Assembly: GCA_019636515.1 (NCBI GenBank)
Contig: JAHBXI010000003.1
Span: 641,478 to 705,477, forward strand
From: Phycisphaeraceae bacterium
Lineage (GTDB): Bacteria; Planctomycetota; Phycisphaerae; Phycisphaerales; UBA1924
Direction: 5' to 3'
DNA length: 64,000 nucleotides
This document shows, piece after piece, positions 1 through 54,185 of this stretch. A program made the translations under genes and the position numbers. Positions within the stretch are counted from its first letter, which is position 1; each line of letters starts with the position of its first letter. The notes beneath the pieces were generated by a model that did no database searches, was not told the DNA's origin, and saw only the letters and a program-made list of their open reading frames with translations.

Positions 1-1298
1 ACGCGATGGAGCACATGCGCGAGCAGCGCGTCAAGCAGATCGCCAGCCGGATCGTCGAAGCAGCCCTCGGCGTCGGCATCGAGCGCGATCGGGTCTGGAA
101 CGATGAGAAGAAGAAATGGCGATACGCGAAGCGCCCGCGTAGCCCGCTCTATCACGAGGACGGTGAGGGTACCCCCCACGGCGACCCGCGTTTCAAGACC
201 TGCCACGCCGTCGTCATCGAGAACCTGCGCAACTACCGCCCCGATGAACTCCAGACCCGGCGCGAAAACCGCGCCCTGATGAACTGGTCCGCCGGCAAGG
301 TCCGCAAGTACCTCGAAGAGGCGTGCGAACTCCACGGCCTGCACCTGCGCGAGGTCATGCCCAACTACACCAGCCGCCAGTGCAGCCGAACAGGGCAACC
401 CGGCATCCGCTGCATGGACGTGTACGTCGATCCGATAGCCGGCGAGCCGAAGGCGTACTGGTGGAAGAAGGCGCTCAGCGCCGCAAGGAAGAAAGCCGGC
501 AACGGTGATCAGAGCGAGAAGAGGGGCGATGGCGAGTCGCGCTTCATCATCGACCTCGCTGATCAACTCGTCAAATTCAAGGCCGACGGCAAGCCGCTGC
601 CCGAGACCGTGCGTGTTCCCCGTAAGGCCGGCGACCTGTTCGTCGCAGCGCCGCCGTGGTCCTGCCATGCTGACGCCCATCGACCGTGCCCGCTCTGCGA
701 TGCCAAGCGCGCTGTGCAGGCCGATCTCAACGCCGCCGCCAACATCGGCCTGCGGGCACTGCTCGACCCCGACTTTCCCGGCAGGTGGTGGTACGTGCCG
801 GCCGCGATGGACAACGAGGGATGGCGCGTCCCCGCCCCGAAGAGTTGCACGGGGGCCGCCTGCCTCGATGGTTGGAAGGTCGCGCAGAAGGATGGCTGTT
901 TCAGAACGGACGGAACGCCGCTCGGCACGGCTGACGATGAATCCGTCAAGAGAGCCGAAGAAGCGGTGGCCTCCGCAAAGAAGGTGCTCGATGCAGCCAA
1001 GAAGGCCGCGAAAAAGCCCGGCGCGGACCAGACGGGACTCTGCACAGCGAAGGAGTGCCACGAAAAGGCCAAGGCGGCGCTGAAGGATGCGAAAAAGGCT
1101 GCGTCGCAGAAGGAGATCGTCAACATCTGGCAGGATCCCAGGACCGATCGGCCACAGCCCTCCGCTGGTCGTTGGCGGGAGACCACCGCCTACTGGAGCA
1201 TCGTCCGCGCCCGCGTCATTTCTCGCCTCCGGGCCGCGACTGGATTGGATGAGCCGGAGGGCGCTGAGCCGATTGCTGACCAAGACGTGTCTTGCTAG
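1..1298 (+). CDS. cas12b: Cas12b-like type V CRISPR effector, C-terminal fragment (gene continues upstream of the window)
   Basis: The ORF is open from base 1 and stops at 1298. It contains a RuvC-II-like HAVVIENLRNY motif, a TnpB-like YTSRQCSRTG motif, a CHADAHRPCPLC zinc finger and a RuvC-III ADLNAAANIG motif. The tail (AYWWKKAL ... GRWRETTAYWSIVRARVISRL) resembles the AacCas12b C-terminus from memory (PWWLNKF ... GNWTRQKEFWSMVNQRIEGYLVKQIR). A CRISPR array starts 350 bp downstream on the same strand. Confidence 0.8.
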   Translation, partial: AMEHMREQRVKQIASRIVEAALGVGIERDRVWNDEKKKWRYAKRPRSPLYHEDGEGTPHGDPRFKTCHAVVIENLRNYRPDELQTRRENRALMNWSAGKVRKYLEEACELHGLHLREVMPNYTSRQCSRTGQPGIRCMDVYVDPIAGEPKAYWWKKALSAARKKAGNGDQSEKRGDGESRFIIDLADQLVKFKADGKPLPETVRVPRKAGDLFVAAPPWSCHADAHRPCPLCDAKRAVQADLNAAANIGLRALLDPDFPGRWWYVPAAMDNEGWRVPAPKSCTGAACLDGWKVAQKDGCFRTDGTPLGTADDESVKRAEEAVASAKKVLDAAKKAAKKPGADQTGLCTAKECHEKAKAALKDAKKAASQKEIVNIWQDPRTDRPQPSAGRWRETTAYWSIVRARVISRLRAATGLDEPEGAEPIADQDVSC

Positions 1299-1627
1299 AA
1301 TGACCGCAATCGCCCACGGGGCGAGGGAATCCCGAGCACGTGTCTTCGCCTTCAATGGCCCTGGCACTCGGCATCAATCAGGCTCGCGTTGGCTCCGCCC
1401 GCTGGAGGGGGAGCCGGTGTTCTTTGACAAGTCGGCTTCCCGCGGCCCCGCTGGTGGGGGTGGGGGGGCGAGTGCGATGGTGGTGAAGAGGGGTGCCGGG
1501 CACGCTCGCACTCCCCGGTTTTCGGCTGGAATCCGTGGTTTTTGCCGCGTCCAGAGATCAGAAAATGACGGTCCGATCGCTCCAAAACCGCTCATGCTCG
1601 CCAGAGGCCGCGCAAGTGGCTTTTTTT
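1299..1627 (+). ncRNA. CRISPR leader and candidate tracrRNA, with a putative anti-repeat at about 1601-1620 and a T7 run at 1621-1627
   Basis: CAGAGGCCGCGCAAGTGGCTT followed by TTTTTTT is imperfectly complementary to repeat positions 8-24 (AAGCCCACGCGGCCCUG), with bulges. It sits between cas12 and the array on the effector strand. This is a hypothesis only. Confidence 0.3.
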
Positions 1628-1648
1628 CAAGGCTTTGCGAGTGCGGCA

Positions 1649-2605
1649 GCCGCGGAAGCCCACGCGGCCCTGATGGATGGACACGCTTTCGTAGTTGCCC
1701 AGCCCGCCAACGCTACCACCGCCGCGGAAGCCCACGCGGCCCTGATGGATGGACACTTCTCCTTGCCCTCTTGGGCGGTCCCCGACTCACTCGCCGCGGA
1801 AGCCCACGCGGCCCTGATGGATGGACACTTGGCGAAGGTCGTGGCGGCCTCCGGCGTCGGGGCCGCGGAAGCCCACGCGGCCCTGATGGATGGACACCTG
1901 TGTCCCGCCAGGCCATCGCCATCACACTCAGCCGCGGAAGCCCACGCGGCCCTGATGGATGGACACATCACATGGCCAGCGCGAGGATCACCGGTGTCGG
2001 CGCCGCGGAAGCCCACGCGGCCCTGATGGATGGACACGCGTGGACCGGGATGAGATGTGTGGCACAGGACGGGCCGCGGAAGCCCACGCGGCCCTGATGG
2101 ATGGACACGGATCGTCCTTGGCGGGTAACGAGTCGCCGCCGCAGCCGCGGAAGCCCACGCGGCCCTGATGGATGGACACCGCGCCGAGTGTGGGCTGTAC
2201 TGCCGCCCGCGGCGGCCGCGGAAGCCCACGCGGCCCTGATGGATGGACACGCTTCGAGTTGCGTACGGCCCTGCATGAAGTTCTGCGCCGCGGAAGCCCA
2301 CGCGGCCCTGATGGATGGACACACGATGTCGTCCTGCTCGCGCCAGTCTCGGACATCGCCGCGGAAGCCCACGCGGCCCTGATGGATGGACACAGATTGC
2401 CCAAGATGTACGGAATCGTGCCCCGCTTGCCGCGGAAGCCCACGCGGCCCTGATGGATGGACACGAGACCATGTGGAGCGACTTCCGGATGGCCGCGGAG
2501 GCCGCGGAAGCCCACGCGGCCCTGATGGATGGACACCGCTGGGTGGCCGCCGAGGTGTGCGGGTACGCCGCCGCGGAAGCCCACGCGGCCCTGATGCACG
2601 GGCAT
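1649..2605 (+). CRISPR. CRISPR array of 14 repeats and 13 spacers; the 36-nt repeat is GCCGCGGAAGCCCACGCGGCCCTGATGGATGGACAC
   Basis: Repeats start at 1649, 1721, 1793, 1862, 1931, 2002, 2073, 2144, 2215, 2287, 2357, 2428, 2501 and 2570. Spacers are 33-37 nt and all unique. The last repeat is degenerate (…CTGATGCACGGGCAT), so the leader is at the cas12-proximal end. The repeat carries a 5' hairpin (GCCGCG/CGCGGC) and ends in GGACAC, like the Cas12b GGCAC ending. Confidence 0.97.
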
Positions 2606-2711
2606 GGCGGCTTGTGGTTCGGACGGCCGACTCGGTTTTTAATCGAGCGGTGTCCGCGTCATCGCCATCACGCGCCCCGCGCGTCCCCTCCCCGACGCGT
2701 CCCCCCCGCGC

Positions 2712-3071
2712 CTACCCCCGCACCAACTCCTTGAATCCACCGCACGCCATCCGCTTGCAGTCAAACGGCATCGCCTTGGGGTCCATGCACTCGGCCAGCC
2801 GCGAATCCTTCATCACCTTCTTGTTCACGCGGTCGCGGTGCGCCCGCGACTTGTACACGATCCACGCGAACACCACCGTCTCACCGGGGCGGGTCTTGGC
2901 CATCTTCGGGAACGGCGTGCAGAACGTCGTGTTCACATCGTCCGCCACGCACTCGTGATACGCCAGGGCCCCGTGCTCCATCCACACCTTGCTCGCCTTC
3001 TTCGCCAGCGCCTTGTACTTGGCCAGGTTCTTCGTCGGCACCGGCAGCACGAATCCATCCACGTAGTTCAT
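2712..3071 (-). CDS. DUF1428 family protein
   Basis: 119 aa with an MNYVDGFVLPVP N-terminus typical of DUF1428. Confidence 0.75.
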   Translation of the reverse strand: MNYVDGFVLPVPTKNLAKYKALAKKASKVWMEHGALAYHECVADDVNTTFCTPFPKMAKTRPGETVVFAWIVYKSRAHRDRVNKKVMKDSRLAECMDPKAMPFDCKRMACGGFKELVRG

Positions 3072-3151
3072 TCCAACTTCCCTTCATTGAGTGGTTGCCA
3101 ATTCGATCGCCTCTCGGCACGATCCTACCCGTTCCCGCGCCGCTTTGCCCA

Positions 3152-3607
3152 TCACCCGCTCCCCCGGCCCGCCAGTTCCCGTATCCGCTCGATCCCGTAG
3201 TCCCACCCCGACTCGACCCCCTCGATGTCGTCGTCGGGCATCAGCCCCATCGCCCGGTGCGTCAGCGTCAGCCGGGTCCCGCTCCCCTCCGCCGCCAGGC
3301 GGTACCGTACGAAATTGACCGCCGGGTACGACATGAACATCGGCCCGGAGATCTCCAGCAGGCGCGGCGGCTTGACCACCTGCACCGTTCCCCAGAAATG
3401 CCCGGCCCGGTTCCCCAGGTCCCGGTACCAACGCCCCCCGGGCCACAGTTCGATCTTCATCGGGAACGCCACGTCCCCGGGCATCCGCGATTCCTCGCCA
3501 AGTTCATCCACCACCGCCCGGAACGTCGCCTCGATCGCCGCCTCGATGAACACATCCCGCTGGATGTGCAGCGACCGGATTGCCTCCCCCGTCTCGTTCT
3601 TGACCAT
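3152..3607 (-). CDS. SRPBCC (Aha1/AHSA1-like) domain protein
   Basis: 151 aa with an activator-of-Hsp90-ATPase-like fold signature, downstream of ArsR in the same orientation. Confidence 0.7.
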   Translation of the reverse strand: MVKNETGEAIRSLHIQRDVFIEAAIEATFRAVVDELGEESRMPGDVAFPMKIELWPGGRWYRDLGNRAGHFWGTVQVVKPPRLLEISGPMFMSYPAVNFVRYRLAAEGSGTRLTLTHRAMGLMPDDDIEGVESGWDYGIERIRELAGRGSG

Positions 3608-3647
3608 GTGCGTTTCTCCTCGGCGGAGCGCGGCGATCCCGCGCGGG

Positions 3648-4064
3648 TCATAGGTACTTGCCCTTCCAGACCGGCCACGGCGGGATCACCGGCGCCTTCC
3701 CGGGCGTCGCCTGGGAGGAATCCCGGGATTCCTTCCCCCGGCGGGCCGTTCGCTCGGCCCGCGACTTGATCCTCGACAGGTGCTGGTCCCAGTGCTTCTT
3801 GAAGGTGTCGGCCCAGTCGCGCACCTCGCGCAGAGGCTCCCCTCGCACCGCGTACATACGCTCGCGCCCGCGCCGGCGAACCGCCACCAGGCCCGCCGCG
3901 CGCAGCACGCCCAGGTGCTTCGACACCGACGGCTGCGGGAGGGTGATCGACTCGATGATCTGGGTGACCGTCCGCTCCCCGCGGGCCAGCGCCAGGAGGA
4001 TCCTCCGCCGGCTGGGGTCGGCGACGGCCTGGAAGACATCGACGGCGGCGCGGGCGCGGGGCAT
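3648..4064 (-). CDS. ArsR/SmtB family transcriptional regulator
   Basis: HTH region DPSRRRILLALARGERTVTQIIESITLPQPSVSKHLGVLRAAGLV; classic ArsR-SRPBCC operon arrangement. Confidence 0.85.
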   Translation of the reverse strand: MPRARAAVDVFQAVADPSRRRILLALARGERTVTQIIESITLPQPSVSKHLGVLRAAGLVAVRRRGRERMYAVRGEPLREVRDWADTFKKHWDQHLSRIKSRAERTARRGKESRDSSQATPGKAPVIPPWPVWKGKYL

Positions 4065-4135
4065 GCCGGCATCATATTCCCAATTGAGAATATGTCAAAC
4101 CGGCGTTCCCGCACGCCCGGGCGGGGGTCGTTAGG

Positions 4136-5767
4136 ATGGGGGGGATGCCTTCGCCGGGCCTGGCCGAACCCCTGATCGAGATCCACCCCTCCCTGTGGGC
4201 GCTGGCGGCGCTGAACTGGGTCCTGCGCCTGGTGCTGGTGGTGGTGGTGATCCACAAGCGGCGGCCCAACGTCGCCCTGGCGTGGGTTGTGATCGTGCTT
4301 TTTCAGCCCGTGGCGGGCGGGATCCTGTTCCTGCTCATCGGCCGCATCCGGATCGACGCGACGACTACCCGCCGGTACGCGAGCCTGGCGGCGCGGAGTT
4401 TGGCGCTGGCGGCGCGGCGCGGGTCGGTGGATGTGCCCGCGCGGTTCAAGGACCTGGTGCGTCTGTCGGAATCGCTGAACCTTCACCCGCCGACGAGCGG
4501 CAACCGTGTCGGGCTTGTGGGTTCGCACGCGGGGTTCGTCGGGGGGCTGGTGGAGGACATCGACCGGGCGAGCGTTTCGGTGAGCGTGCTGTATTACATT
4601 TTCCTGGATGACCAGGTGGGGCGGGAGGTGGCCGGGGCGTTGTCGCGGGCGGCCGGTCGCGGGGTCCGGTGCCGACTGCTGGTGGATGCGGTGGGTTCGC
4701 GGTCGATCCTGTCGTCGCGTGCGGGGTCTTTGCGGGCGGCGGGCGTGGAGGTTCGCGCGGCGCTGCCGGTGCGGCCGTGGCGTGCCTTGCTGGTGCGGGC
4801 GGACATCCGCAACCACCGCAAACTGGCGGTGATCGACGGCCGGGTCGCCTGGGCGGGATCGCATAACATGTGCGAGGAGCACTACGGGCACTCTGGGTAT
4901 GGTCCGTGGATCGACCTGACGGCTCGCCTTGAAGGCCCGGCGGTGGCGCAACTGGCCCAGGTTTTCGAGGAGGACTGGTACGCGCAGACGGAGGAAGCCG
5001 CCGAGAGCGAGGCGCCCCTGCCGGAGGTCGATCCCGGGGTTGTACCCGAGGTGGTACCCCAAGCGGGGTCCCTGGCCCGGTCGGGATCGGGCATTGGAGC
5101 CGCGACGGAATCTGGAACCGCGACTGGATCCGGATCTGGACCTGGATCTGGACCTGGATATGGAGCGGCCATGGCGGCTGGATCGGCGGCCGGGCATGCC
5201 GAGCACGCCGGGGCGGGCATGGCGGTGGTGCAGGTCTTCCGCTCGGGGCCGACGGGTTTTCCGGACAGTCTCGAGCCTCTCTTGATCGCGGCGATGCACG
5301 AGGCGGAGGAGCGGATCGTGCTGACCGCTCCGTACTTTGTTCCGACGTCGGCGATCCTGCTGGCGCTGCGGATCGCGGTGCTGCGCGGCGTGCGCGTGGA
5401 CGTGATCGTTCCGGCGCGGAGCAATCACCCGCTGGTTCAGGCGGCGGGCCGGGCGAGTTTCGAGGAGGTCCTGGAGTCGGGGGTGAACATCCACCTTCAT
5501 TCACCGGGACTGCTGCACAGCAAGACGATGCTGGTGGACGATTCGTTCGCGTTGATCGGGACGGCGAATTTCGATGTGCGGTCCATCTCGCTGAATTTCG
5601 AACTCAAACTGCTGATCTTCGACCACGAGACGGTGCGGACGCTGGTGTCAATCCACGAGGGATACCTGCGTTCGTCGGTCCCGGTGTGCCTGGATGCGTG
5701 GGCTCGCCGCGGGCGGGCGCGGCGGCTGGGGGAGAACCTCGCCCGGCTGTTTACCCCTCTTCTGTGA
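4136..5767 (+). CDS. cls: cardiolipin synthase (PLD family, two HKD motifs)
   Basis: Two N-terminal TM helices, NHRKLAVIDG and LHSKTMLVDD HKD motifs, and GTANFDVRS. Confidence 0.9.
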   Translation: MGGMPSPGLAEPLIEIHPSLWALAALNWVLRLVLVVVVIHKRRPNVALAWVVIVLFQPVAGGILFLLIGRIRIDATTTRRYASLAARSLALAARRGSVDVPARFKDLVRLSESLNLHPPTSGNRVGLVGSHAGFVGGLVEDIDRASVSVSVLYYIFLDDQVGREVAGALSRAAGRGVRCRLLVDAVGSRSILSSRAGSLRAAGVEVRAALPVRPWRALLVRADIRNHRKLAVIDGRVAWAGSHNMCEEHYGHSGYGPWIDLTARLEGPAVAQLAQVFEEDWYAQTEEAAESEAPLPEVDPGVVPEVVPQAGSLARSGSGIGAATESGTATGSGSGPGSGPGYGAAMAAGSAAGHAEHAGAGMAVVQVFRSGPTGFPDSLEPLLIAAMHEAEERIVLTAPYFVPTSAILLALRIAVLRGVRVDVIVPARSNHPLVQAAGRASFEEVLESGVNIHLHSPGLLHSKTMLVDDSFALIGTANFDVRSISLNFELKLLIFDHETVRTLVSIHEGYLRSSVPVCLDAWARRGRARRLGENLARLFTPLL

Positions 5768-6566
5768 TGAAACCGGCGTCGTTCCAGGCGGCCAGGATTC
5801 GCGGGGCGGCCAGGTCGGGCCTTTGGATTGCCCGCAGGTCGGCGACGACCGGGCGCGTGTATCGGACGATGGAGAGGGCGGCGGCGTACGAGGTCAGGTC
5901 GAGTCGTCCGGTGGGTGAGCCGGCGGGGACCCGGGCGGCCCCGTCGTGGTCGGAAAGCCGGCACTGGGCCGGGGCCGCGCGAAGACGAGTGACGGTGTCG
6001 AAGACATCCTCGCCGGCGGAGAGGATGACCGCTGGGTCGATGCCGATGCCGATGGTGGACTCGGGTTCGGGGTTTGCGGCGTCGGAGGTTGAGTCGGCGG
6101 GACGGGGTGTTCGGCGGTGATCGGCGATGGTGATCCCCAGGCGTGCCGCGGCGGCGGCGAACTGCATCATGACGTCCGTTGCGATGCCCGCGGGAGTCTC
6201 GATGGCGACGACGGCCCGTCCGCGGGGTGCGGCGTGCGGAGTGGCGTCCAGGTCCGCGGCGAGTTCGATGGCGCCGAGGATGGCGGCGACGGCCCGGTCG
6301 ATGGTGGCCTGCTCGACAAGGTGCCGCGGGGGGATGAAGGCGTCGATGCCTGCCAGGGAGATCTGGCGGCGACGGAGGATGGAGGCCAGGTCGCGGCGGG
6401 CGGAGCGGTCGAGGTCTCTGGGTCGGAGTCCCGGGGCGGTGGCGTCGAGTTGGAGGTGCCGCGGGTTCAGCCCGGCGGCCCACTCGATCAGCGCGCGGGG
6501 GTCTTCGGATCCGCCGGGAGGGCGGATGCCGGAGAGGGAGAGTGCGACCGGTACGGTCGGGGGCAT
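5751..6566 (-). CDS. hypothetical protein (possibly TIM-barrel sugar-phosphate isomerase-like)
   Basis: The long ORF has its start trimmed to Met53. No motif I can name with confidence. Confidence 0.35.
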   Translation of the reverse strand: MPPTVPVALSLSGIRPPGGSEDPRALIEWAAGLNPRHLQLDATAPGLRPRDLDRSARRDLASILRRRQISLAGIDAFIPPRHLVEQATIDRAVAAILGAIELAADLDATPHAAPRGRAVVAIETPAGIATDVMMQFAAAAARLGITIADHRRTPRPADSTSDAANPEPESTIGIGIDPAVILSAGEDVFDTVTRLRAAPAQCRLSDHDGAARVPAGSPTGRLDLTSYAAALSIVRYTRPVVADLRAIQRPDLAAPRILAAWNDAGFITEEG

Positions 6567-6744
6567 GAGGTGTTGTATGCCCGCGGGGCGGGGGGGGTAC
6601 CCTTGCGTCGTGCCGCGACCCGATAACCAAGCGCGTGATCGAACGGGCGACCGATCCGCCGGGCGAAGCCCCGCCGGCCCGGCGGCGCGTGGACCCGGAC
6701 CTGGAAAGTCAAAGGTGGACAAGCGAGGGGTCTCGGCAAGCCGT

Positions 6745-7566
6745 GTGAAAGGAAGCGGCGCGAAGCCTGGCCGGTTGCCTGGCGCGTCGCGGGAGACGGT
6801 GGCGACGGCGGCCGAGCGCCGGCGGGCGCTTCGTCTGATGGCCGCGCTGGAGGGGCACTACCCCGAGGCGGCGTGCGAACTTGAGTACCGGACGCCCCAC
6901 GAGTTGCTGGTGGCGACGATCCTGTCGGCGCAGGCGACGGACGTGAGCGTGAACAAGGCGACGCCGGCGCTGTTTGCGCGATTCCCGACGCCGTCGTCGT
7001 ACGCCTCGTCGAGCGTCGCGGAGATCGAGCCGTACATACGGACGATCGGCCTTTTCCGTTCGAAGGCGAGGGCGATTCACGAATCGATGTCGCGCGTGTC
7101 GTCGGTGTTCGGGGGGAAGGTGCCCGAGACGATGGAGGAACTTCTGACGCTTCGCGGGGTGGCTCGCAAGACGGCGAACGTGGTGCTGGGAAACGCGTTT
7201 GGCCGCAACGAGGGGTTCGTGGTGGATACGCATATCGACCGGCTGTCCAAGCGGTTTGGGCTGGCGCGGCCGGGGGCGGGCGTCGGGGAGGTCGAGCGTC
7301 GGCTGATGGCGCTGTTTCCGCGGGAGTCGTGGTGCCAACTCTCGCACCGGTTCATATGGCATGGCCGCCGGGCGTGCCGGGCGCGCGGGTGTGACTGCTC
7401 TCATCCGGTCTGCGCGGTCTTCGGGCCGTGCGGCACCGACGGGCGGGCGGGGTCGTCGTGCGAGGGGTGCGCGGGTGGGAAACCTCGTTCCACCCTGGAC
7501 GGCACCGGGGTTTTCAAGGGTCCGAATCGCCGAAATAAAGTGGCGTTGGGCGTACGGATCGTATAG
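6745..7566 (+). CDS. nth: endonuclease III (Nth), GTG start inferred
   Basis: ELLVATILSAQATDVSVNKAT, LRGVARKTANVVLGNAFG and a C-terminal Cys cluster. The start was placed by alignment to E. coli Nth; the ORF-track ATG at 6127 is over-extended. Confidence 0.85.
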   Translation: MKGSGAKPGRLPGASRETVATAAERRRALRLMAALEGHYPEAACELEYRTPHELLVATILSAQATDVSVNKATPALFARFPTPSSYASSSVAEIEPYIRTIGLFRSKARAIHESMSRVSSVFGGKVPETMEELLTLRGVARKTANVVLGNAFGRNEGFVVDTHIDRLSKRFGLARPGAGVGEVERRLMALFPRESWCQLSHRFIWHGRRACRARGCDCSHPVCAVFGPCGTDGRAGSSCEGCAGGKPRSTLDGTGVFKGPNRRNKVALGVRIV

Positions 7567-9537: not shown

Positions 9538-10731
9538 TTAGCCGTTGCGGGCGGCGAAGTCCTTCATGAACTGGGCGAGGGCCTTGCAGCCGTCCTCGGG
9601 CATGGCGTTGTACATGCTGGCGCGCATGCCGCCGGTGGAGCGGTGGCCCTTCATGCCGTCGAGTCCCTGCGCGGCGGCCTGTGAGCAGAAGGCATCGTCG
9701 AGCGCAGGGGTCGGGCACTTGAAGGTGATGTTCATGAGGCTTCGGGCGTTCTTGTCGGCGTGCCCGCGGTAGAAGTTTCCCGAGGAGTCGATGGCCTGGT
9801 AGACGTGTCCGGCCTTGCGGATGTTGCGTTCGTGGATGACGTCGAGGCAGTGCCGCCCCGGCTGGGCGTGGGAGAGGATCCACTTGAAGACCAGGCCGCA
9901 GATGTGGATGGCAAAGACGGGCGGCGTGTTGGGCCGGCTCTCATCCTTGGCGAAGGTTTCGTAGCGCAGGAGCCAGGGGAGTTCACGGACTTTTCGAGAG
10001 GCCAGGTCGTCGCGGATGACGACGAGGGTGGTGCCCGCGGCGCCGAGGTTCTTCTGCGCGCCGGCGTAGACCAGGCCGTAGCGGGTGAAATCGACAGGCC
10101 TTGAATAGATGTCGCTCGACATGTCGCAGACGAGCGGGACACCGGGGGGCGCGACGGGGTCGCGCTGATGCCAGGTGCAGGCGCCGGCGGCGTCGGCCTT
10201 GTGCCACTGGGTGCCGTAGATGGTGTTGTTGGAGCAGAAGTGGACGTAGGCCGGGGCCTGGGAATAGCGGGCCTGGCCGTCGGCGGGGATGTAGGAGTGG
10301 TTGCGGTCCTTGCTGGTCGCGGCCTCGTGAAGCACGCCGTAAGGCCTGGCGTGTTCGAGGCTTTTCTCGGCCCAGTAGCCGGTGGTGATGTAGTCGGCGG
10401 GCTGGTCCTGGGGCTTGAGGTTGGCGGGAACCAGGAAGTTCTGGGAGGAGGCCCCCCCGGTCATGAACAGGACGTGGTAGTTTTCGGGAAGGTTTGAGAT
10501 GGCGCGGAAATCGTGCATGGCCTCGGCCAGGACTCGATCAAAGGCCTTGCCTCGGTGGCTGTGCTCGAGGATGCCGATGCCCGTCGCGGCGATGTTGAAG
10601 ACGTCCTTTTGGACCTGGGCCAGGACTTCCTCGGGCAGGCAGCCGGGACCGGCGGAAAAATTGAAGATGCGTCCCGAGGCGGTGCGTGAGACGGCGGCGT
10701 GGTTCGCGTGGGCGGGTGCGGCGGTACTCAT
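9538..10731 (-). CDS. serC: phosphoserine aminotransferase
   Basis: FNFSAGPG motif and class V aminotransferase fold; adjacent to serA. Confidence 0.9.
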   Translation of the reverse strand: MSTAAPAHANHAAVSRTASGRIFNFSAGPGCLPEEVLAQVQKDVFNIAATGIGILEHSHRGKAFDRVLAEAMHDFRAISNLPENYHVLFMTGGASSQNFLVPANLKPQDQPADYITTGYWAEKSLEHARPYGVLHEAATSKDRNHSYIPADGQARYSQAPAYVHFCSNNTIYGTQWHKADAAGACTWHQRDPVAPPGVPLVCDMSSDIYSRPVDFTRYGLVYAGAQKNLGAAGTTLVVIRDDLASRKVRELPWLLRYETFAKDESRPNTPPVFAIHICGLVFKWILSHAQPGRHCLDVIHERNIRKAGHVYQAIDSSGNFYRGHADKNARSLMNITFKCPTPALDDAFCSQAAAQGLDGMKGHRSTGGMRASMYNAMPEDGCKALAQFMKDFAARNG

Positions 10732-53126: not shown

Positions 53127-54185
53127 TTAACTGGCCCTGGCGCGGGGGTGGGCGCGGTTGTACGCGTCCTGGAGTCGCTGGGTGGTCAGGTGGGTGTAGA
53201 CCTGGGTGGTGCTCAGGGACTGATGCCCCAGGAGTTCCTGGACGCTCCGCAGGTCCGCGCCGTTGTCGAGCAGGTGTGTGGCGAAACTGTGTCGGAGGGT
53301 GTGGGGGCTGATGGTGGGGTCCAGGCCGACCTGCTTGAGGTACTTGTCGAGTTTGCGTCGGACGGAGCGTGAACTGAGGCGTCCGCCGTGCTTGTTGAGG
53401 AACAGGGGCTTGACGCGAGAGCCTTCGGACCAGTACGCGCTGTATCGGGCGTCGGCCAGGACCATGTCCATGTAGCGGCGGATGGCCTCGATGGCGTGGC
53501 TGCCCAGGGGGACGACGCGTTCCTTGCGCCCCTTGCCGCGAACCCGGAGGCACTCGTTGGCGACGTCGAGTTCGTCGTAGTTGAGGCCGATCAGTTCGCT
53601 GACGCGGATTCCGGTGGAGTACATGGTTTCGAGCATGGCGCGGTCTCGCCGGCCGAGCACGTCGGAATCGGCGGGCGCGACGAGCAGTTGCTCAACCTGC
53701 TCGATGCTGATGGCCTTGGGAAGTCGCTTTCCCTGGCGTGGCGTGCGGATAAGGGTCATGGGGTTGGCGTCGGCGATGCCCCGGCGGTCGGCCCACTTGA
53801 AGAAGGATCGCAGGGTGGCGATCTTGCGGGCCAGGGTCGCGGCGGAGTAGTGCTGCTCATTCAGGTGGGCGAGGAATCCGCGGACGACGTCGGCGCCGGC
53901 GGTGCAGATGACCTCCGTGAGGGTGGAGGGCGCGGCGGTGTTGGCCGGTCGGCTGGTGGCCTCGGCGGCGGCTCCGGACGTTCCCGGGGAATGGGCGGGC
54001 TGCTCGAGCCGGCGGCGGAACCACTGGTCCTCCCGGGCCTGGTCGAGGGCGATGTTGAGCCCCTGCGAGAGGTATTCAACGAACTGCCGCAGGTCGGCGC
54101 CGTAGCAGCGGGCGGTGTACGGGCTGAAGTGCCGCTCATCGGCGAGGTACGACTGGAAGGCGGCGGTGATGGGAAGGATCGACAT
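53127..54185 (-). CDS. xerC: tyrosine recombinase XerC/XerD family
   Basis: Catalytic motifs RHSFATHLL and LGHQSLSTTQVYTH. There is an insertion of about 55 aa in the N-terminal domain. The XerC-versus-XerD assignment is not resolved. Confidence 0.8.
   Translation of the reverse strand: MSILPITAAFQSYLADERHFSPYTARCYGADLRQFVEYLSQGLNIALDQAREDQWFRRRLEQPAHSPGTSGAAAEATSRPANTAAPSTLTEVICTAGADVVRGFLAHLNEQHYSAATLARKIATLRSFFKWADRRGIADANPMTLIRTPRQGKRLPKAISIEQVEQLLVAPADSDVLGRRDRAMLETMYSTGIRVSELIGLNYDELDVANECLRVRGKGRKERVVPLGSHAIEAIRRYMDMVLADARYSAYWSEGSRVKPLFLNKHGGRLSSRSVRRKLDKYLKQVGLDPTISPHTLRHSFATHLLDNGADLRSVQELLGHQSLSTTQVYTHLTTQRLQDAYNRAHPRARAS

Follow-up and report, generated by a model that had tools for sequence, protein, structure and literature searches.

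A large Cas12b gene, its tracrRNA and a 13-spacer array without nearby adaptation genes form a probable type V-B CRISPR-Cas locus in a Phycisphaeraceae bacterium

AacCas12b and BthCas12b are dual-RNA-guided nucleases that act on double-stranded DNA. A clade of large Cas12b1 proteins, approximately 1,500 residues long and reaching 1,888 residues, has been described as distinct from Cas12b2 (type V-B2), whose members comprise 700-800 residues; Planctomycetota commonly hold Cas12b2 and CasX (Altae-Tran et al. 2023, PMC10691335). For ChCas12b, a solved Cas12b, the single guide RNA (sgRNA) sequence is given in the published methods, the secondary structure of this RNA is known from electron cryomicroscopy (cryo-EM), and mutation of D767, E1220 or D1364 abolishes or weakens cleavage (PMC12204704). 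The DNA analysed here, referred to as the window, comprised 64,000 nt from a Phycisphaeraceae bacterium (Planctomycetota; GCA_019636515.1, contig JAHBXI010000003.1, positions 641,478-705,477, forward strand). The start of the window very probably represents the 3' portion of a type V-B CRISPR-Cas interference locus carried on the chromosome. It is ordered cas12b (1676 codons when complete), trans-activating CRISPR RNA (tracrRNA), leader and 13-spacer array, all on the + strand (Table 1). The host family agrees with the Planctomycetota-like lineage that had been proposed from the letters of the sequence in the original prediction.

The reading frame at the window edge ran uninterrupted from nt 3 as far as the TAG stop at 1296-1298 and encoded 431 residues. 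This fragment matched the NCBIfam Cas12b equivalog NF033949 at 293.7 bits (cut-off 150 bits), covering profile positions 926-1252 of 1253. PADLOC Cas12b matched it at 4.2e-80, with TnpB and the other Cas12 subtypes no better than 1e-8, and a C2c1 RuvC-like domain was placed in it by Pfam (1e-16). The closest solved structure was PDB 9KLN (ChCas12b, 1496 aa), aligned over residues 1168-1476 with E 6.5e-56. The missing upstream part was reached through an exact-sequence look-up of the neighbouring DUF1428 gene (window 2712-3071, minus strand), which returned near-identical contigs. One of these, L007, carried the same locus with an uninterrupted 1676-aa open reading frame (ORF) whose C-terminus was identical to the window fragment. 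A second, L012 (GCA_016794865.1), was 99.95% identical to window positions 1-1877, extended 8.5 kb past the window start and also contained an uninterrupted 1676-aa ORF (L012 4743-9773). The full-length protein, P0121, is annotated as Cas12b in GenBank, where one contig bearing it is 758,941 nt long. It matched the Cas12b profile at 835.7 bits over positions 1-1252 of 1253, in keeping with the type V-B call made from the fragment.

The original prediction had allowed that the complete protein might prove to be a TnpB or another non-Cas12b family, or a short TnpB-like ORF unrelated to the array. Such an IS605-family TnpB/OrfB transposon nuclease beside an unrelated array would accord with the JGI annotation of many homologs as 'IS605 OrfB family transposase' and with weak matches to NF040570 and PF07282 (34 bits each). 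The NF040570 (guided_TnpB) score of 33.7-34 bits is set against a cut-off of 100 bits and against 294 and 836 bits for Cas12b, and a TnpB would be expected to comprise approximately 400 residues rather than 1676. Moreover, no TnpA was encoded among the neighbours, and dozens of loci repeat the order cas12b-tracrRNA-array. This candidate is ruled out by the profile scores and the sequence of the complete protein, which leave it a vanishingly small probability.

D824, E1318 and D1486 of P0121 did not vary when the protein was aligned with ChCas12b and eight relatives (alignment A5), and they correspond to ChCas12b D767, E1220 and D1364, respectively. The Glu and the second Asp of this triad lie inside the window, in the RuvC-II and RuvC-III motifs that had been recognised there from the start. 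For the first Asp, the near-identical contigs L012 and L007 are the sole source.

The TnpB-like zinc finger that had been proposed for the fragment was present in part. Its second knuckle (CPLC) is intact, but the first is degenerate (C-x9-C, compared with CxxC in TnpB), and the Pfam TNB model (PF07282) was matched over its first half only (E 3e-8). The Cys/His-rich insertion listed in Table 1 may be a remnant of a second zinc-ribbon knuckle; CxxC occurs at the same position in 17 of 119 full-length homologs, making it a feature of a subclade. The region after RuvC-III had been described as an unusually long, Lys/Ala-rich tail of approximately 190 residues. It is indeed long, at 182 residues against a homolog median of 117, because it contains Lys/Ala-rich insertions (P0121 1544-1556 and 1584-1612, relative to ChCas12b). 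It is not unique, however: the insertions are common to P0122, P0123, P0129, P0136 and P0153 in alignment A5, and the tail has at least 170 residues in 12 of 106 homologs.

A database search gave 561 homologs of the effector, and the homolog figures reported here rest on the best 120 of these. At least 1300 residues were present in 119 of the 120 (median 1506, maximum 1710), and those with an organism name came mostly from Planctomycetota. No relatives were recovered when JGI metagenomes were scanned with peptide patterns from the full-length protein. The length of 1676 residues, inside the range of approximately 1,400-1,900 residues taken for ChCas12b-like proteins, the best PDB match (9kln) and the shared tracrRNA scaffold and GACAC repeat end all place P0121 in the large Cas12b1 clade. 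For type V-B as a whole, the full-length profile match, the RuvC triad, a tracrRNA with a complementary anti-repeat and a co-oriented adjacent array were found; the adaptation module in cis (cas4/cas1 fusion plus cas2), which is typical of the subtype and not defining of it, was absent from the region covered. Type V-B enzymes are further expected to make staggered cuts in double-stranded DNA that depend on a T-rich 5' protospacer-adjacent motif. The suggestion that this could be a divergent V-B variant did not hold, the protein falling in a published clade (PMC10691335) with a solved member, ChCas12b (PMC12204704). As judged by sequence, the locus is an ordinary large-Cas12b1, ChCas12b-like type V-B locus. 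GenBank already lists the exact effector protein as Cas12b; the lack of nearby spacer-acquisition genes is the only unusual point.

Assignment to another type V subtype (Cas12b2 of V-B2, Cas12h, Cas12e/CasX or a new subtype) was also considered. The host is a planctomycete, a group in which Cas12b2 and CasX are common (PMC10691335), and the repeat ends in GACAC, not in the GGCAC of Alicyclobacillus-type V-B. This end and the tracrRNA scaffold are nevertheless those of ChCas12b itself, and the best PADLOC matches were all to Cas12b (Cas12h 0.04, Cas12f 4e-8). With Cas12b2 at 700-800 residues and Cas12h at approximately 900, compared with 1676 here, a subtype other than Cas12b1 is very improbable. 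The label 'V-B2' for large planctomycete Cas12b proteins was rejected on the same ground, V-B2 effectors having 700-800 residues (PMC10691335).

Two relatives showed irregular effector genes. L001 (80-4871; also L002 and L003), the closest C-terminal relative, is mosaic with respect to P0121, with 71% identity over the last 452 residues and 48% over the first 1223. Its cas12b is frameshifted near nt 3579, with the same split in three independent sequencing runs, and its array consists of two repeats and one spacer. In L004 (12942-14333) a UPF0236-type transposase gene interrupts the array, where an insertion sequence element appears to have been inserted. The L004 cas12b was called as two ORFs; the name of the contig points to long-read assembly, and an indel error may account for the split.

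Cas12b had been predicted to abut the array. The two are adjacent, but the first repeat lies 350 nt beyond the stop codon, and the interval holds a leader and a tracrRNA gene, the latter previously overlooked. The tracr part of the ChCas12b sgRNA aligned to window positions 1315-1381 on the + strand, and an equivalent match was located right after the cas12b stop in relatives L001, L004, L016, L017 and L018. A 28-nt core, GTGTCNTNNCCTTCNATGGNCNTGGCAC, was present in at least 108 JGI metagenome contigs (L020-L127), the ChCas12b locus among them. Where the downstream sequence sufficed, an array with GACAC-ending repeats began 203-337 nt (mostly 220-300 nt) from this core.

Covariation was scored on the secondary structure that cryo-EM had given for the ChCas12b sgRNA, a template taken from outside the alignment. 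In stems 1 and 3 plus the stem 2 base, examined over 71 distinct sequences, 97.2% of cells were paired, with a covariation score of 0.572; shuffling gave 0.131 (none of 500 shuffles scored as high) and sliding the register gave at most 0.116. Stem 2 in its entirety, available in 51 sequences, had 95.0% of its cells paired and scored 0.518 against 0.130. Covariation strongly supports all three stems. Anti-repeat:repeat duplexes had a median energy of -27.7 kcal/mol for cognate pairs and -17.9 kcal/mol for non-cognate pairs, and in 19 of 45 cases no repeat paired better than the cognate one. Repeat and anti-repeat co-evolve. In the window, the anti-repeat (1372-1396) and the repeat form a near-continuous 24-bp duplex of -30.3 kcal/mol, a value reached by 0 of 1000 shuffles. 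The whole window gave no match in Rfam at gathering thresholds; the tracrRNA therefore falls under no known RNA family.

A candidate -10 box precedes stem 1 (Table 1). TAGnnT or TATAnT occurs at the same distance 5' of stem 1 in relatives, with a clear TATAnT in those richer in AT. A terminator scan returned one site against 0.7 expected by chance, a weak result when taken alone. A terminator reading is plausible because the hairpin stands directly after the anti-repeat, and the hairpin with its T-rich run is probably the 3' end of the tracrRNA. A possible sgRNA layout derived from the locus would comprise window positions 1310-1382, a linker, the 3' part of the repeat (CCTGATGGATGGACAC; last 16 nt) and the guide. 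With the 28-nt core, tracrRNAs of this clade can be located; an RNA family could be built on it, and sgRNA design for hundreds of uncharacterised large Cas12b proteins could become easier.

In L011 (14901-17018), a Planctomycetota relative with 52% identity, the order is cas12b-cas4/cas1-cas2-array and the repeats end in GACGGCAC (GGCAC). No ChCas12b-type tracrRNA was detectable in L011. The large Cas12b clade seems to use at least two tracr scaffolds, with the L011 branch probably using another.

The array was delimited with a repeat finder and an exact-match script. Its 36-nt repeat, GCCGCGGAAGCCCACGCGGCCCTGATGGATGGACAC, occurs in 13 exact copies with start positions 1649, 1721 and so on to 2501, after which comes a degenerate terminal copy. 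The repeat was as originally described, with a 6-bp GCCGCG/CGCGGC hairpin in its 5' half (-14.1 kcal/mol) and a GGACAC end. Thirteen unique spacers had been predicted and were found, their lengths being 33-36 nt rather than 33-37 nt. The degenerate copy at 2570-2605 lies at the end opposite the leader, placing the leader on the cas12 side, as had been proposed. No further repeat-like copies were found elsewhere in the 64-kb window. The same spacers were present in an independent metagenome-assembled genome, with spacers 1-3 in L012 and 5-13 in L005. A G-rich tract, GCTGGTGGGGGTGGGGGGGC, lies in the leader at window 1449-1468. Of the array region, the Logan contig L007/L013, which is from the same strain and corresponds to window 1-6934, retained the leader, a single repeat, spacer 13 and the degenerate repeat, and nothing else; the shortening reflects either collapse of the repeats during assembly or a genuine deletion variant.

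Table 1. Window coordinates of the features at the cas12b-tracrRNA-array locus
Feature	Position (nt)	Strand	Comment
cas12b 3' end	3..1298	+	last 431 codons and stop; end of helical-II, RuvC-II, Nuc, RuvC-III
RuvC-II catalytic Glu	219..221	+	P0121 E1318, equivalent to ChCas12b E1220; invariant column in alignment A5
Cys/His-rich insertion PPWSCHADAHRPCPLC	651..698	+	just before RuvC-III; absent in ChCas12b
RuvC-III catalytic Asp	723..725	+	P0121 D1486, equivalent to ChCas12b D1364; motif QADLNAAANIG
Lys/Ala-rich helical insertions	885..1112	+	C-terminal half of Nuc domain
Candidate -10 box TAGAAT of tracrRNA promoter	1296..1301	+	inferred position; overlaps cas12b stop
tracrRNA	1310..1396	+	aligned to published ChCas12b sgRNA scaffold
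tracrRNA stem 1	1310-1314 with 1320-1324	+	
tracrRNA stem 2	1332-1336 with 1367-1371	+	
tracrRNA GTGTC	1340-1344	+	pairs with 3' GACAC of repeat
tracrRNA stem 3	1348-1350 with 1357-1359	+	
tracrRNA anti-repeat	1372-1396	+	24-nt; complementary to own repeat
Terminator-like hairpin and T-rich run	1400..1429 (hairpin 1400-1419)	+	
Leader	1430..1648	+	between tracrRNA and first repeat; degenerate repeat at opposite end
CRISPR array	1649..2605	+	14 repeats, 13 spacers; repeat then spacer
Degenerate terminal repeat GCCGCGGAAGCCCACGCGGCCCTGATGCACGGGCAT	2570..2605	+	6 mismatches, all in 3' half (CRISPR RNA handle)

No cas1, cas2 or cas4 was found between 4.7 kb upstream of cas12b and 61 kb downstream by tblastn, PADLOC or Pfam. 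By tblastn, queries taken from relatives (four Cas4-Cas1 and four Cas2) scored no more than 26 bits in the window or L012; as a positive control, the same queries cross-detected each other at 228 and 57 bits. PADLOC and Pfam, run on 58 GC3-predicted window ORFs, returned no Cas1, Cas2 or Cas4. These searches bear out the prediction that no adaptation genes lie downstream. Of the two options then left, a module upstream or none at all, the second holds for the first 4.7 kb upstream. With no cas4/cas1-cas2 in the region covered, the array could gain new spacers only if adaptation proteins were encoded at another site, and otherwise could gain none.

In most relatives, cas4/cas1-cas2 adjoin cas12b. 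The ChCas12b locus (L020) is ordered cas12b-cas4/cas1-cas2-tracr-array, with the same gene order in L011, and L016 and L018 are ordered cas4/cas1-cas2-cas12b-tracr-array. In L004, a divergent cas2-cas1-cas4 lies upstream of cas12b. Just 5' of cas12b in L017 there is a 100-aa chimeric ORF (9674-9976) that combines AdoHcyase and protein-kinase fragments and ends in 24 residues 87.5% identical to the C-terminus of the L016 Cas2. It looks like the scar of a deletion that removed the adaptation module, and it illustrates how the adaptation-less state arises. Unlike in L017, no cas2 or cas4/cas1 remnants were found upstream of cas12b in the window strain. Together, the window locus and L017 document repeated loss of cas4/cas1-cas2 inside type V-B.

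By homology to ChCas12b and AacCas12b, expression, processing, protospacer-adjacent motif (PAM) reading and cleavage at this locus would proceed as follows. The array would be transcribed from the leader. The 24-nt anti-repeat of the tracrRNA (approximately 1310-1425) would pair with each repeat, its GTGTC pairing with the terminal GACAC. Processing of this duplex would then yield a CRISPR RNA (crRNA) whose 5' handle comes from the repeat and whose 3' portion is the guide. Cas12b, bound to tracrRNA:crRNA, would read a 5' PAM and cut both DNA strands through its single RuvC site (D824/E1318/D1486).

Several observations weigh against a functional interference locus. A sigma-70 consensus scan of window 1200-2800 returned no promoter for the tracrRNA or the array. 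The original prediction had proposed that the spacers be searched for protospacers and a PAM, and none were obtained. There were no self-targets within the window at up to 6 mismatches; when the array was compared by blastn with 50,697 phage and 72,556 plasmid records, matches were at chance level only (E at least 0.02); exact 22-mers of six spacers had 0 matches in IMG/VR; and blastn-short of the spacers against related loci (0.87 Mb) and the remainder of the window gave matches of at most 16 nt. No protospacer for any spacer was found in these collections. The PAM-reading residues of ChCas12b are not kept in P0121, K292 being deleted and N564 (OBD loop) replaced by Lys. Loci of this lineage do decay, as seen from the frameshifted, single-spacer L001, and an array without adaptation genes may be a frozen relic.

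Taken further, these points would describe a decaying relic in which cas12b and the array persist after loss of the adaptation module and the defence function is gone. The absence of cas1, cas2 and cas4 in 66 kb, the frameshift and one-spacer array of the closest C-terminal relative, the cas2-loss scar in L017 and the lack of any spacer with a known target are all consistent with it. Against it stand the 1676-aa ORF, intact in several independent assemblies, with its catalytic triad intact; the 13 repeats, which are 100% identical; and the tracrRNA, which keeps all its stems and a 24-nt anti-repeat fitting its own repeat. Together these point to continued purifying selection, and decay is distinctly unlikely. 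A functional locus is further favoured by the conservation of the tracrRNA and by the recovery of the same spacers in a second assembly.

The PAM-contacting region of P0121 was compared with that of ChCas12b, whose PAM is TTN and for which K292 is essential; P0121 has no K292 equivalent. The helical-Ib PAM loop, GPGYKSATRN in ChCas12b, is YPGH---TPNP in P0121 (residues 305-315, encoded upstream of the window). Among the 119 listed homologs the loop was of the GPGYKS type in 84, the GHxPNP type in 7 and other types (e.g. GWKTGRPSKGR) in 28. ChCas12b D496 corresponds to His in P0121, the sole His among the 119; P0121 positions 501 and 565 are concerned in these comparisons. Going by these residues, the PAM of P0121 may differ from TTN. 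A broader proposal, that this is a naturally adaptation-less large Cas12b with the minority GHxPNP loop and a non-TTN PAM, its array kept by adaptation proteins supplied in trans, is tentative and rather unlikely. The alternative PAM loop could merit testing by those mining Cas12b for editors. The value for basic biology is small, the locus adding one more intact member to the large Cas12b1 proteins.

The upstream 4.7 kb encodes a dihydroorotase-like amidohydrolase, two small family-less proteins and a DUF1801 protein. The downstream 61 kb contains housekeeping genes and Planctomycete hallmark families, for example PheS, L21, thiolase, DUF1501, PSCyt2 and PSD1. A PADLOC match to 'Csa3' (2.8e-18) at window 3648-4064 (minus strand), 1 kb from the array, was rejected, as it covered the winged helix-turn-helix part only and no CARF domain. 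The gene encodes a regulator of the ArsR family, lies in an ArsR-AHSA1-DUF1428 cluster and probably has no link with CRISPR. One window ORF matched Pfam Phage_integrase (7.7e-49). A 352-aa ORF at 53127-54185 (minus strand), 50 kb from the CRISPR locus, contains the tyrosine-recombinase motif HTLRHS and is probably a Xer-type recombinase.

The closest described system is that of ChCas12b (Candidatus Hydrogenedentes, 1496 aa; PDB 9KLN-9KLQ; PMC12204704), which belongs to the same clade and is 47% identical to P0121 over its full length. The two share domain order, the catalytic D/E/D and the tracrRNA scaffold, including stems 1-3, the GTGTC:GACAC duplex and the anti-repeat. They also share a 36-nt repeat ending in ...CTGAT...GGACAC and a tracrRNA placed immediately 5' of the leader and array. 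P0121 differs in being 180 residues longer, with approximately eight insertions that include Lys/Ala-rich and Cys-rich ones, and stem 2 has 5 bp in the window tracrRNA, compared with 6 bp in that of ChCas12b. The ChCas12b locus carries cas4/cas1-cas2 between cas12b and the tracrRNA, whereas the window locus is without adaptation genes and its tracrRNA follows cas12b directly.

AacCas12b and BthCas12b (V-B1, approximately 1100-1130 aa; PDB 5U30, 5WQE, 5WTI) belong to the same profile family as the window effector. The RuvC-II and RuvC-III motifs and the Nuc motif at the C-terminus can be recognised between them (E 1e-10 to 3e-6 over approximately 90 residues), but the similarity is distant. These proteins are approximately 550 residues shorter, and their loci have GGCAC repeat ends, another tracrRNA scaffold and cas4/cas1-cas2 in cis. 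The large Cas12b1 clade resembles the window locus in size class and Planctomycetota hosts; relatives in it have a Cas4-Cas1 fusion and Cas2, and this module, described for the clade (PMC10691335), is missing in the window locus and L017, where it was lost or never there. Adaptation-less type V systems (V-H, V-I and many V-F) likewise consist of an effector and an array without cas1 or cas2 in cis. They belong to other Cas12 families and their loss is subtype-wide, whereas that of the window locus is lineage-specific within type V-B.

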